A DNA stretch of 64,000 nt from Escherichia coli (GCF_017348835.2 NZ_CP071375.1), one strand, 5' to 3'; positions 54,204 through 59,778 are shown, counted from the stretch's first letter. The notes: generated by a model from the letters alone, not told the origin. Program-made: numbers and translations.

Positions 54204-54887
54204 ATGAATCTAAAAAAGATACTATTAAGCGTGTTAATGATATCGCCACTCTGCATGTTGACAGGGTGTGACTATATTGGAAAAGCAAAACTAATCGACG
54301 ATCTTTCCAAACAGCAAGAGTTGCAAAAAGGTAAAATAGAGCAACTTGAAAAACAACAAGAACAAGATAAACGCAAGATAGAACTATTTGAAAAACAGCA
54401 AACTGCCATCATAAATAGTACCAAAACGCTTGCTAGTGTGGTGAAGGCGGTTAAAGAAAAGCAGGATGAATTTGTCTTCACAGAATTTAACCCAGCACAA
54501 ACACAATACTTCATTTTAAATAACGGCTCTGTCGGTTTGGCGGGTCGGGTGCTGGCTATTGATGCAGTTGAAAACGGCAGCGTTATTCGTATTTCGCTGG
54601 TCAACCTATTAAGCGTTCCCGTATCAAATATTGGTTTTCATGCTACATGGGGCAATGAAAGGCCCACCGATGCCAAAGCTCTGGCGAAGTGGCAACAATT
54701 ACTTTTCAATACCGCTCTGAATTCCACTCTGCAATTAATGCCTGGTCAATGGCAAGACATTAATCTGACATTAAAAGGCGTTTCGCCTAATAACCTGAAG
54801 TATCTGAAGTTGTCCATCAATATGGCCAATCTCCAGTTCGACACTGTTCAATCTGCTGAAACTCGGCAGCGAAAAAACAAAAAATAA
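54204..54887 (+). CDS. SadB-like coiled-coil lipoprotein (putative trimeric-autotransporter-associated lipoprotein)
   Basis: 227-aa ORF with signal peptide and lipobox (LTGC), heptad-like segment QQELQKGKIEQLEKQQEQDKRKIELFEKQQ; 43 bp upstream of the TAA gene on the same strand. Confidence 0.6.
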   Translation: MNLKKILLSVLMISPLCMLTGCDYIGKAKLIDDLSKQQELQKGKIEQLEKQQEQDKRKIELFEKQQTAIINSTKTLASVVKAVKEKQDEFVFTEFNPAQTQYFILNNGSVGLAGRVLAIDAVENGSVIRISLVNLLSVPVSNIGFHATWGNERPTDAKALAKWQQLLFNTALNSTLQLMPGQWQDINLTLKGVSPNNLKYLKLSINMANLQFDTVQSAETRQRKNKK

Positions 54888-54930
54888 ATGCAGCTTCTGC
54901 GCTTATATCAAGGAATAGAGAACATCAATA

Positions 54931-57900
54931 ATGAACAAAATATTTAAAGTCATCTGGAATCCGGCGACGGGCAGTTATAGCGTTACCAGCGAAACGGCAA
55001 AAAGCCGTGGCAAGAAATCTGGTCGCAGTAAGCTGTTAATTTCTGCACTGGTTGCGGGTGGAATGTTTTCGTCGTTTGGGGCATTGGCGAATGCCGGGAA
55101 TGACAACGGTCAGGGAGTTGATTACGGTAGTGGATCAGCTGGCGACGGCTGGGTTGCTATAGGCAAAGGGGCGAAAGCAAATACTTTTATGAACACCAGT
55201 GGTTCCAGTACTGCTGTGGGTTATGAAGCTATAGCTGAAGGCCAATATAGCTCTGCCATCGGTTCAAAAACCCATGCGATTGGTGGTGCATCAATGGCGT
55301 TTGGGGTTAGTGCAATATCAGAAGGCGATAGAAGTATAGCACTGGGTGCCTCTTCGTATTCATTGGGCCAATACTCAATGGCCCTCGGCCGTTATTCAAA
55401 AGCATTGGGTAAATTGTCTATTGCTATGGGGGACTCTTCCAAAGCGGAAGGAGCAAACGCCATTGCACTGGGGAATGCCACTAAAGCTACTGAGATTATG
55501 AGTATTGCTCTTGGCGACACCGCCAATGCGTCAAAAGCGTATTCAATGGCGCTGGGTGCAAGTAGCGTCGCATCCGCAGAAAACGCAATTGCCCTGGGGC
55601 GTAGCAGTGTAGCTAGCGGTACTGACAGCCTCGCATTTGGCAGACAATCACTTGCCAGTGCAGCAAACGCTATTGCGATAGGTGCTGAGAGCAAAGCCGC
55701 TGAAAATGCGACGGCCGTTGGTACCAAAGCGGAGGCCAATGGACTTAATAGTATCGCGTTGGGCTCTGGGGGTATTGCAGATGCCGATAACACGATTGCT
55801 CTGGGCAATCAAAGCCTGGCAGTAGCTGCTGGTGCAATTGCTATCGGTCAGGGGAATAAAGCTGACGGCGCAAATGCTATCGCGCTGGGTAATGGTAGTG
55901 TTACAGGTGGCGCAAATGCTATTGCTCTTGGACAAGGTAGTTATGCCGGTTTAGAAAATGGCATTGCAATTGGTGGTCAAGCCAGTGCTCAAGGGACAAA
56001 TTCCGTTGCTCTGGGTGCGGGTTCTGTAGCGACTGAAGATAATTCCGTCTCTGTGGGTAACACAACAGATCAGCGAAAAATTGTCAATATGGCAGCAGGT
56101 GATATCAGCACTAGCAGTACTGATGCCATAAATGGATCACAGCTTTATGCTATCAGTAAGTCAGTAGCGGACCGTCTTGGTGGGGGGGCTACCGTCAATG
56201 CGCAAGGTGTCGTTACTGCCCCGAATTACAGACTGAAAAATGGTATTTATGGCAATGTTGGCGATGCTTTAGCGGATCTAAACAATAACACGATACAATG
56301 GGACTCCGTTAAAAAGGGATATAGTGCGGCACATGGTACAGATGCCACCAGCACCATCACCATCACCAACGTTAAAGCCGGCACTATTTCTGCTACCAGT
56401 ACGGATGCGGTTAACGGTTCTCAGCTGAAAGCTACCAATGACGATGTCGAGGCCAATACCGCCAATATCGCTACTAATACCAGCAACATTGCCACGAATA
56501 CGGCAAGTATTGCCACCAACACCACTAATATCACCAACCTGACGGATTCCGTTGGTGACCTTAAGGATGATGCCCTGCTGTGGAATGACGCTAAAAATGC
56601 ATTCAGTGCAGCTCATGACAAGGATACAACCAGCAAAATCACCAACGTTAAAGATGGCGACCTGACGGCTGGCAGCACCGATGCCGTTAATGGCTCTCAG
56701 CTGAAAACCACCAACGATGCTGTGGCGACGAATACCACCAATATCGCCAATAACACTTCCAATATTGCCACTAACACCACCAACATCTCTAACCTGACTG
56801 AGACGGTGACTAATCTTGGTGAGGATGCGCTGAAATGGGATAAGGACAGTGGTGTCTTCACGGCAGCACACGGCACCGAGGCCACCAGCAAAATCACCAA
56901 CGTTAAAGATGCCGACCTGACGGCTGACAGCACCGATGCCGTTAACGGCTCTCAGCTGAAAACCACCAACGATGCTGTGGCGACGAATACCACCAATATC
57001 GCCACTAACACCACCAACATCTCTAATCTGACTGAGACGGTGACTAATCTTGGTGAGGATGCGCTGAAATGGGATAAGGACAATGGTGTATTCACGGCAG
57101 CTCATGGCAACAACACCGCCAGCAAAATCACCAATATCCTGGACGGCACAGTCACAGCAACCAGTTCTGATGCCATTAACGGTAGCCAACTTTATGACTT
57201 AAGCAGCAATATCGCCAGCTACTTCGGCGGCAATGCTTCTGTGAATACTGACGGTGTGTTTACCGGTCCAACCTACAAAATCGGTGAAACAAATTATTAT
57301 AACGTCGGCGATGCACTGGCTGCGATTAACTCCTCATTTAGCACGTCTCTCGGCGATGCCCTGCTTTGGGACACTTCCGTAGAAAAATTTAGTGCCAAAC
57401 ACGGTACTAATGGTGACGCAAGCGTGATCACTGATGTCGCAAATGGAGATGTTTCAAGCACAAGCTCTGATGCTGTGAACGGCTCGCAACTCTATACCAC
57501 CAATAAGTACGTCGTAGATGTGTTGGGTGGTGGTGCCGAAGTCAATGCTGACGGCAGCATCAGTGCGCCGACTTATACTATCGCAAACACAGATTACGAT
57601 AATGTCGGTGATGCCCTGAATGCTATAGATACCACTCTTGACGACGCCCTGCTCTGGGATGCGGACGCCGGTGAAAATGGTGCATTTAGCGCCGCTCACG
57701 GAAAAGATAAAACTGCCAGTGTAATCACTAACGTCGCAAACGGTGCAATTTCCTCCACCAGCAGCGATGCTGTGAACGGCTCACAACTCTATACTACCAA
57801 TCAGTACATTGTCGATGCGCTGGGTGGTGATGCAGAAGTTAACGCTGACGGCACCATCACTGCGCCAAGTTACACCATTGCGAATACCGAGTACAACAAC

Positions 57901-59778
57901 GTCGGTGACGCCCTGAATGCGCTTGATGATAACGCCCTGCTGTGGGATGAGACTGCCAATGGCGGTGCAGGAGCCTACAATGCCAGCCATGACGGTAAAG
58001 CCAGCATCATCACTAATGTCGCTAATGGCAGTATTAGTGAGGACAGTACCGATGCAGTGAACGGTTCTCAGTTGAATGCGACGAATATGATGATTGAGCA
58101 GAACAGCCAAATCATCAATCAGCTTGCTGGTAATACCGACGCAACCTATATCGAAGAAAATGGCGCTGGTATCAACTACGTTCGTACTAACGACAACGGT
58201 TTAGCCTTTAACGATGCAAGCGCCTCTGGTGTCGGCGCTACAGCTGTAGGTTATAACGCTGTCGCGTCTGGTGCCAGCAGCGTAGCCATTGGTCAGAACA
58301 GCAGCAGCACCGTTGATACCGGTATTGCGCTGGGTAGCAGCTCCGTTTCCAGCCGTGTGATTGCCAAAGGTTCTCGTGATACCAGCGTGTCAGAAGAAGG
58401 TGTTGTGATTGGTTATGACACCACGGATGGCGAACTGCTCGGTGCATTGTCGATTGGTGATGATGGCAAGTACCGCCAAATCATCAACGTAGCCGATGGT
58501 TCCGAAGCCCATGACGCCGTTACGGTTCGTCAGTTGCAGAACGCTATTGGAGCGGTCGCCACTACGCCAACCAAGTACTATCACGCCAACTCAACGGCAG
58601 AAGACTCACTGGCCGTTGGTGAAGACTCGCTGGCAATGGGGGCGAAAACTGTCGTTAATGGTAATGCAGGTATTGGTATCGGTTTGAACACTCTGGTTCT
58701 GGCTGATGCGATCAACGGTATTGCTATCGGCAGTAACGCACGCGCAAACCATGCAAACAGTATTGCAATGGGTAACGGTTCTCAGACCACCCGTGGTGCA
58801 CAGACTGGCTACACCGCCTACAACATGGACGCACCGCAGAACTCTGTAGGTGAGTTTTCTGTTGGTAGTGAAGACGGTCAACGTCAGATCACCAACGTCG
58901 CAGCTGGTTCAGCGGATACCGATGCGGTTAACGTGGGTCAGTTGAAAGTCACTGATGAGCGCGTAACGCAAAATACCCAGAGCATTACTAACCTGAACAA
59001 TCAGGTCACTAATCTGGATACTCGCGTTACTAATATCGAAAACGGTATTGGCGACATCGTAACCACCGGTAGCACCAAGTACTTCAAGACTAACACCGAT
59101 GGCGTAGATGCCAATGCCCAGGGTAAAGATAGCGTTGCTATTGGTTCTGGTTCCATTGCTGCCGCTGACAACAGCGTCGCTCTGGGTACAGGCTCCGTGG
59201 CCAACGAAGAAAACACGATCTCTGTGGGTTCTTCTACCAACCAACGCCGTATCACCAACGTAGCTGCCGGTGTTAATGCCACCGATGCGGTTAACGTGTC
59301 GCAGCTGAAATCTTCTGAAGCAGGCGGCGTGCGCTACGACACCAAAGCTGATGGTTCTATCGACTATAGCAATATCACCCTCGGTGGTGGCAACGGCAGT
59401 ACGACTCGTATCAGCAACGTCTCCGCTGGCGTCAACAACAACGACGCGGTGAACTACGCGCAGTTGAAGCAAAGCGTGCAGGAAACGAAGCAATACACCG
59501 ATCAGCGGATGGTTGAGATGGATAACAAACTGTCTAAAACTGAAAGCAAGTTGAGCGGTGGTATCGCTTCTGCAATGGCAATGACCGGTCTGCCGCAGGC
59601 TTACACTCCAGGTGCCAGCATGGCCTCTATTGGTGGCGGTACTTACAACGGTGAATCGGCTGTTGCTTTAGGTGTATCGATGGTGAGCGCCAATGGTCGT
59701 TGGGTCTACAAATTACAAGGTAGTACCAATAGCCAGGGTGAATACTCCGCCGCACTCGGTGCCGGTATTCAGTGGTAA
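54931..59778 (+). CDS. upaG: Trimeric autotransporter adhesin, UpaG/EhaG/SadA family
   Basis: 1615-aa ORF with extended signal peptide [21 protein letters not shown]…, repetitive head/stalk modules and a C-terminal YadA-like anchor ending …AALGAGIQW. Confidence 0.85.
56379..57150 (+). repeat. In-frame tandem repeats (~255 bp / 85 aa, ~3 copies) inside the adhesin stalk
   Basis: Near-identical DNA blocks, e.g. ACCAACGTTAAAGATGGCGACCTGACGGCTGGCAGCACCGATGCCGTTAA… at 56641 and again at 56896. Confidence 0.8.

Follow-up and report, generated by a model that had tools for sequence, protein, structure and literature searches.

Here we describe a two-gene locus in a 64,000-nucleotide stretch of the Escherichia coli chromosome (GCF_017348835.2, NZ_CP071375.1), referred to below as the window, with positions counted from its first letter. 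E. coli F2_81, isolated from a pig rectal swab in Australia, has a chromosome (NZ_CP043542.1) that matches the window at 100% identity. Flanked by yibL and lldP are a lipoprotein gene and, exactly 43 bp further on and on the same strand, a gene for a large adhesin. RefSeq annotates two coding sequences with identical ends on the F2_81 chromosome, as a "SadB/YajI family lipoprotein" and a "YadA-like family protein", and open reading frames this long with such database matches cannot plausibly be due to chance. Very probably, the pair is orthologous to the sadBA operon of other enterobacteria. We favor orthology and a shared operon because of the homology of the lipoprotein to SadB, the domain set of the adhesin, the position of the pair, the invariant and terminator-free spacer, the co-occurrence of the two genes, and the operon already published from related bacteria. 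The features of the locus are collected in Table 1.

Table 1 Features of the sadB-adhesin locus, with allele blocks compared by DNA identity
Feature	Position	Strand	Description
yibT	52802..53011	-	Upstream neighbor
yibL	53296..53658		Upstream neighbor; NCBIfam NF008244 YibL equivalog, E = 7.5e-57
yibL-sadB leader	53659..54203		AT-rich; 545 bp, 29.2% GC
Conserved island in leader	53985..54025	+	Near-invariant across five leader alleles
Promoter-like site	-35 TTGACA 53987..53992; -10 TAGAAT 54011..54016	+	18-nt spacer; near-consensus sigma-70
Allele block, leader and sadB			Nearest to UpaG-type strain 405, 64-99% (sadB 79-99%, leader 64-78%), versus 51-79% to O157
Lipoprotein gene (sadB)	54204..54887	+	227 aa, ATG start (open reading frame listing)
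Signal peptide of lipoprotein	aa 1-21, 54204..54266	+	N-terminus reads MNLKKILLSVLMISPLCMLTG-C22-D23
Gln-rich coiled coil of lipoprotein	roughly aa 24-88		C-terminal beta-sandwich domain next
sadB-adhesin spacer	54888..54930	+	43 bp; AAGGAA 5' of adhesin ATG
Adhesin gene	54931..59778	+	1615 aa, ATG start (open reading frame listing)
ESPR (PF13018)	aa 1-48, 54931..55074	+	Pfam, E = 2.9e-15
Allele block, ESPR region			Common to all types, 91-93%
YadA_head (PF05658) repeats	about aa 92-377	+	Pfam; further head repeats among stalk modules
YadA_stalk (PF05662) modules	head and stalk matches spanning aa 92-1525	+	Pfam; at least 12; stalk, neck, and head alternate
Allele block	55058..55650		EhaG type, 96-99%
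Allele block	55650..56400		UpaG type, 85-94%
Allele block	56400..57350		EhaG type, 91-99%
Shorter 21-bp repeats in adhesin gene	56453..56531 and 56734..56787	+	Tandem Repeats Finder
Tandem duplication of stalk module	56759..57182	+	234 bp (78 aa), 1.8 copies; Tandem Repeats Finder
YadA_anchor (PF03895)	aa 1555-1615, 59593..59775	+	Pfam, E = 1.9e-19; reaches last residue
Allele block, last ~350 bp (anchor)			Common to all types, 96-99%
REP/BIME-type repeated palindromic element	59816..59899		Many matches per genome, median 13 places
Terminator-like hairpin	59932..59961	+	13-bp stem then TTCTTT; only + strand one in 53500..60300
lldP, lldR, lldD	downstream of adhesin		RefSeq annotation and open reading frame list

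The upstream gene product resembles Salmonella SadB throughout. In a phmmer search against the PDB, residues 23-227 align without gaps to residues 3-207 of 4C47, the "inner membrane lipoprotein" SadB (E = 3.6e-71), with 53% identity over the whole mature protein. This was the single PDB match at E values up to 0.01, and YajI (2JWY) was not matched at that threshold, which places the protein in the SadB branch of the SadB/YajI family. The lipobox reads LTGC, with the lipidation-site Cys22 at 54267..54269 and Asp23 at +2, and both residues are identical in Salmonella SadB. The Asp suggests retention in the inner membrane by analogy with the Salmonella protein, which is lipidated on Cys-22 and for which the inner-membrane location predicted from Asp +2 was confirmed by fractionation (Grin et al., J Biol Chem 2014, PMC3953254). 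Within residues 24-95, heptad register 1 places 12 hydrophobic residues and five Gln at the 21 a/d positions, four of the Gln at position a. This pattern agrees with the published description of the SadB coiled coil as nine Gln-rich, weakly trimerizing heptads (Grin et al., PMC3953254). Relative to Salmonella SadB (STM3690), the E. coli protein thus has the same mature length, Gln-rich heptads, and C-terminal beta-sandwich region, and differs at 47% of residues, mostly in the signal peptide and coiled coil; the window allele is known from its sequence alone. SadB forms discrete allele classes within E. coli, at 64-89% identity; compared with the window protein, the O157 type is 68% identical and the proteins of UpaG-type loci 83-89%.

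The downstream gene encodes a trimeric autotransporter adhesin with an ESPR signal, head and stalk modules, and a C-terminal anchor. Residues 1528-1615 are hit by two Hia anchor structures, 3emo and 2gr7, the strongest similarity of the C-terminal third is to SadA fragments (2yo0, E = 9.8e-138; 2yo3, E = 2.8e-88), and individual modules are matched by solved fragments of AtaA, BpaC, Hia, UspA1, EibD, and YadA. Membership in the Ata, EmaA, Vomp, BimA, and YadA families was rejected, as all six NCBIfam models scored far below their curated cut-offs (for instance, Ata at 322 bits versus a cut-off of 2500, and YadA at 134 versus 750). Judged by these scores, the adhesin shares modules with those families but is not a member of them. 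The genes annotated as ehaG in O157:H7 FRIK944 (1588 aa) and as upaG in KE51 (1778 aa) occupy the same chromosomal slot, and by this comparison the adhesin is the positional orthologue of EhaG, UpaG, and SadA. It is 88% identical to EhaG over aligned positions, with an anchor that is 98-99% identical, and is 27 aa longer. UpaG of the uropathogenic type shares locus and architecture with 80% aligned and 71% full-length identity, while the window protein is 163 aa shorter. Salmonella SadA (1461 aa; 2YO0, 2YO3, 2YNZ, 2YO2, 2YNY, 3ZMF) has the same grammar of heads, necks, and stalks and a very similar C-terminal third, and differs in length and in the order of modules in the N-terminal two thirds, which form the variable passenger. 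Indels relative to other alleles concentrate around the tandem duplication of the stalk module. An initial annotation of this DNA had proposed a SadB-like lipoprotein gene 43 bp before a 1615-aa UpaG/EhaG-family adhesin on the same strand. The open reading frame list agrees with that layout in every detail, and both family names hold, the first through the 4C47 match and shared lipobox and the second through the domain set, the identities to EhaG and UpaG, and the common locus.

The same gene order has been described before. Grin et al. place sadA between the mtl and lld operons of Escherichia, Salmonella, and Shigella, with sadB directly upstream of it in Salmonella after a 44-bp gap (PMC3953254), compared with 43 bp here. 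Salmonella SadB is a trimeric inner-membrane lipoprotein, and with it more SadA is displayed on the surface and SadA resists protease better (PMC3953254). The likeness to the sadB-sadA arrangement drawn in the initial annotation is therefore one with a published operon in the same position, and its suggestion that K-12 is without the pair also proved right: in MG1655, yibL is joined to the region upstream of lldP, and window positions 53660..59844 are replaced by about 10 nt. The pair is accordingly already described and annotated, as Grin et al. (2014) cover both the operon and the K-12 deletion and RefSeq names the gene. What we add is the mosaic structure of the adhesin allele, a rare type of leader and sadB, and a promoter-like island of about 40 bp within a hypervariable leader.

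The spacer between the two genes appears to be held constant. It measured 43 bp in five of five alleles, and a 101-bp alignment across the gap in seven alleles contained zero indels at 93% mean column identity, though the SadB proteins of those alleles differ by up to 36%. No + strand terminator-like site was found in the 43-bp spacer, and a terminator or attenuator there was rejected because the predicted fold was no better than shuffled sequence (z = -0.27). The promoter scan returned five + strand promoter-like sites in the leader and none within sadB or the gap (54204..54930). Past the adhesin gene, the terminator-like hairpin is the likely, predicted end of the sadB-adhesin transcript. 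The opposite strand at 59923..60031, between the adhesin and lldP, has a sub-threshold Rfam match to STnc380, a Salmonella small RNA candidate (37 bits versus a gathering score of 60, E = 1.7e-4); this stretch overlaps the hairpin and is kept in K-12.

These data bear on whether the lipoprotein could be a mere neighbor of the adhesin, a YajI-like protein with its own role and its own transcription, with the adhesin promoter lying within or after sadB. EhaG and UpaG were reportedly studied functionally by Totsika in 2012 in K-12 hosts that lack sadB, which would mean that SadB is not essential. YajI, the SadB paralogue that shares its RefSeq family name, is 14% identical to SadB and unlinked to any autotransporter (PMC3953254). 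But the PDB search picked out SadB and not YajI, the two genes co-occur nearly perfectly across an invariant gap with no terminator, no promoter-like site precedes the adhesin from within sadB, and SadB has been reported to influence how SadA is displayed (PMC3953254). We consider independent neighbors highly improbable, and treat sadB and the adhesin gene as one operon.

The leader between yibL and sadB is AT-rich and hypervariable among E. coli alleles. Only 0.65% of 545-bp segments within the 64 kb are as AT-rich, and the leader is 52-78% identical to those of O157 and strain 405, while the flanking yibL is 92-99% identical. The one other stretch of the window that is as AT-rich, at ~45800..46900 (minimum 27% GC), begins at the end of an open reading frame at 43459..45888 that matches an RHS element core protein (NF041261, E = 0), and is probably a variable Rhs tip and immunity region. 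Within the sadB leader, five aligned alleles share the unchanged pattern ATTTGACAT..ATT.A.A....TCATTA.AAT while the surroundings vary, and this island covers exactly the promoter-like site TTGACA-18-TAGAAT, which matches 11 of 12 consensus positions and is the best site in 53500..60300 by the promoter scan. From this alignment we predict that the island is the sadB-adhesin promoter or a regulator-binding site. Known RNA elements were sought across 52700..60400, where Rfam at E values up to 1 gave sub-threshold matches only and left the leader unexplained; an STnc50 match in the leader (E = 0.81) was taken as chance.

The locus is common in the species. Among 5426 complete E. coli genomes, a DNA search in distant mode found sadB in 4149 and the adhesin anchor region (59300..59778) in 4154, so that about 4150 (~76%) carry the pair and about 24% are without it. 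The two genes co-occur almost perfectly. The anchor is single copy in every carrier, sadB has a median of one and at most two places per genome, and all copies of both are chromosomal, never on a plasmid. K-12 genomes match only positions 6217-6300 of the query, that is, the REP/BIME part, and it is within this element that the K-12 deletion ends on its right side (59845); the element also has a sub-threshold Rfam match to the REP-derived naRNA4. The position of the edge hints that REP-associated recombination produced the deletion. Grin et al. likewise report that K-12-like strains lost sadA and sadB jointly, in a deletion of about 5 kb (PMC3953254).

The variable presence, the REP element at the right junction, and the base composition of the leader (29% GC) and sadB (40% GC), both well under the genome average, could also be expected if the pair were an island gained by horizontal transfer at a yibL-lldP junction whose ancestral form was that of K-12. 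However, Salmonella and Shigella carry the same operon at the matching position (PMC3953254), the pair is single copy and chromosomal with no flanking integrase, tRNA, or direct repeats, and the adhesin itself is 50% GC, with 50.7% for the whole window. Insertion is on this evidence very unlikely. Loss in K-12 and other lineages is more economical than recent acquisition, and because the position is shared with Salmonella we prefer ancestral presence with repeated loss.

The particular allele in the window belongs to a rare, discrete type. At 95% identity or more, its sadB is found in 52 of the 5426 genomes (about 1%) and its leader in 52 as well, and the next class of leaders is at 80% or lower. 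Only one record matched the 6.3-kb region in full at an identity of at least 99%. We mapped the adhesin by sliding-window DNA identity against O157 as the EhaG type and strain 405 as the UpaG type (Table 1). Blocks of alternating identity run through the gene, which means that homologous recombination between allele classes has rearranged the locus. By these identities, recombination has given a mosaic adhesin allele, with blocks of the EhaG and UpaG types, next to a sadB of the UpaG type. The departures from each type follow the blocks: relative to the EhaG locus of O157:H7, block 55650..56400, sadB, and the leader are only 51-79% identical in DNA and UpaG-like instead, and relative to the UpaG-type locus the head region at 55058..55650 is only 59-77% identical. 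In the alignments the secretion-related ends are conserved and the exposed passenger diversifies.

In relatives the locus is frequently damaged. E. coli PE164 (pig, China) has the same allele, with a leader, sadB, and adhesin 99.8-100% identical to the window, and lacks an intact adhesin, as an IS3-family insertion sequence (IS) at 8944..10157 of its locus splits the gene at window position 56584..56586. The flanks of this element overlap by 3 bp, suggesting a target duplication. In E. coli ET650 (frog feces), sadB is truncated in its 5' half by an IS1 element at 5786..6812 of the locus while the gene for a 1674-aa adhesin is intact, so that by its sequence it is a natural sadB-minus, adhesin-plus strain. 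The O157:H7 FRIK944 sadB (2373..2381 of its locus) reads ATG AAC TAG, a stop at codon 3, where the EhaG-type strains COL60J, A7, and EC190486 read ATG AAC TTG. RefSeq rescues the FRIK944 gene by starting it at an ATT codon that lies 15 nt further downstream, and SadB may be inactive in this strain.

Such damage (the IS3 in PE164, the IS1 in ET650, and the codon-3 stop in FRIK944), together with the roughly 24% of complete genomes that lack the pair and the statement by Grin et al. that the native expression conditions of sadBA are unknown (PMC3953254), is what one would expect of genes that are intact here but silent or decaying, a cryptic relic locked by H-NS and heading for loss as in K-12. 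Against this, both reading frames are full length with every functional module, the pair is kept in about 76% of genomes, and the spacer, ESPR region, and anchor are strongly conserved (91-99%) while the passenger diversifies. Conserved ends with a diversifying passenger indicate that the protein is expressed, exposed at the surface, and under selection, and not that the genes decay neutrally. We regard a decaying relic as unlikely, and return to a functional sadBA operon.

The leader is probably subject to silencing by H-NS, by analogy with related loci. The initial annotation had called it an AT-rich region of the kind usual at the promoters of silenced adhesins; its AT-richness is borne out, at the lowest 0.65% of the 64 kb, and silencing stands as a probable reading by analogy. 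Repression of upaG by H-NS is attributed to Totsika et al. 2012 where that work is cited in a later paper (PMC5012682). In CFT073, c4423 was induced on over-expression of tosR (log2 fold change 5.1, about 34-fold), alongside several cryptic fimbrial operons, and TosR is an AT-tract-binding regulator (PMC5956150). The motif ATAATTAATTATTTAAATTTTCAATCAG lies 299 bp upstream of c4423 and was reported from the TosR-induced gene set (PMC5956150). This AT-rich motif matches the KE51 leader in our leader alignment, and we therefore take c4423 to be the sadB orthologue. ATAATTAATTATTTAAATTTTCAATCAG is near-exact in the KE51 and strain 405 leaders (alignment columns about 243-272) and partly conserved in the window leader at 53881..53910. 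In Salmonella, loss of fur under anaerobic conditions lowered STM3690 by 4.2-fold (PMC3212961).

If the operon works as its relatives do, transcription would start in the AT-rich leader, which H-NS probably silences, with TTGACA-18-TAGAAT as the likeliest site, and the transcript would pass through sadB, the spacer, and the adhesin gene to the downstream hairpin. The first product would leave the cytoplasm through Sec and receive its lipid at Cys22, and Asp +2 would keep it in the inner membrane. By analogy with Salmonella SadB, it would form a weak, Gln-rich trimeric coiled coil bearing three periplasmic beta-sandwich domains. The second product would be a type Vc autotransporter that crosses the inner membrane through its ESPR signal. 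Three C-terminal anchors, contributing four strands per chain, would then form a 12-stranded outer-membrane barrel via the Bam complex, and the passenger of roughly 1500 residues would be exported as a trimeric fiber of heads, necks, and coiled-coil stalks. Like the fibers of EhaG, UpaG, and SadA, for which such roles are reported, it may mediate adhesion, aggregation, and the formation of biofilms; for EhaG, matrix binding, autoaggregation, and biofilm formation are listed (table in PMC7312957). In the periplasm, SadB would gather three adhesin chains that are still unfolded, ahead of the Bam-dependent insertion of the barrel. It would improve the amount and integrity of the surface fiber and would be helpful and not strictly required.

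Several results weigh against this interpretation or parts of it. The mechanism is wholly transferred from Salmonella SadB/SadA and from EhaG/UpaG, and for the window locus the nucleotide sequence is our source. Neither scan of profile families recovered the lipoprotein: Pfam gave no significant domain, with DUF3251 undetected and a spurious nSTAND6 top match (E = 0.014), and NCBIfam gave no family. The lipoprotein assignment therefore draws on the PDB match and the RefSeq naming. For the promoter, the scan found 10 sites in total versus 10.8 expected from shuffles, which is not above chance, and the assignment is therefore drawn from conservation among the five E. coli alleles. A scan of species-representative genomes for the exact island pattern, which diverged copies would escape, gave four hits, all in Escherichia-type DNA and none in Salmonella or Citrobacter. 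The H-NS high-affinity motif TCGATAAATT, allowing up to two mismatches, had no match in the leader versus 0.6 expected, which is uninformative. The AAGGAA sequence in the spacer is 16 nt from the adhesin ATG, beyond typical Shine-Dalgarno spacing.

Two of the four hits to the island pattern were in metagenome-assembled genomes labelled Oscillospiraceae and Collinsella. Their contigs carry Escherichia-type yibL-sadB-adhesin DNA, 80-89% identical to the window, and are probably mis-binned Escherichia. Elsewhere in the window, the reading frame containing mtlD runs ~106 codons 5' of its annotated start (50737..51055), across the mtlA-mtlD intergenic region. The translation of this extension, with repeated SPHGEG, resembles repeated palindromic elements and not coding sequence.

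SadB homologues were found in Enterobacterales only, and TpgA of Acinetobacter, the helper of AtaA, is the only other dedicated helper of a trimeric autotransporter described (2026 preprint, bioRxiv 10.64898/2026.01.22.700529). TpgA is unrelated to SadB. Instead of being a coiled-coil lipoprotein of the inner membrane, it has BamE-like and OmpA-like domains and binds both peptidoglycan and the barrel. The pair in the window would be a textbook case of a dedicated helper encoded with its type Vc autotransporter, in an adhesin locus that is variably present and probably silenced. For annotation, the assignment is of use since some records label the lipoprotein "DUF3251" or "hypothetical protein", and for typing it adds to the adhesin repertoire of a pig-derived strain. 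One possibility, which we put forward with some doubt, is that recombinants of the rare allele, which uncouple SadB from the head type, could show that SadB recognizes only the conserved ends of the adhesin (the ESPR region, or the anchor and last stalk), and that the conserved island could be the sadBA promoter or an anti-silencing site. Mosaic alleles of this kind could help to locate the part of the adhesin that SadB recognizes.

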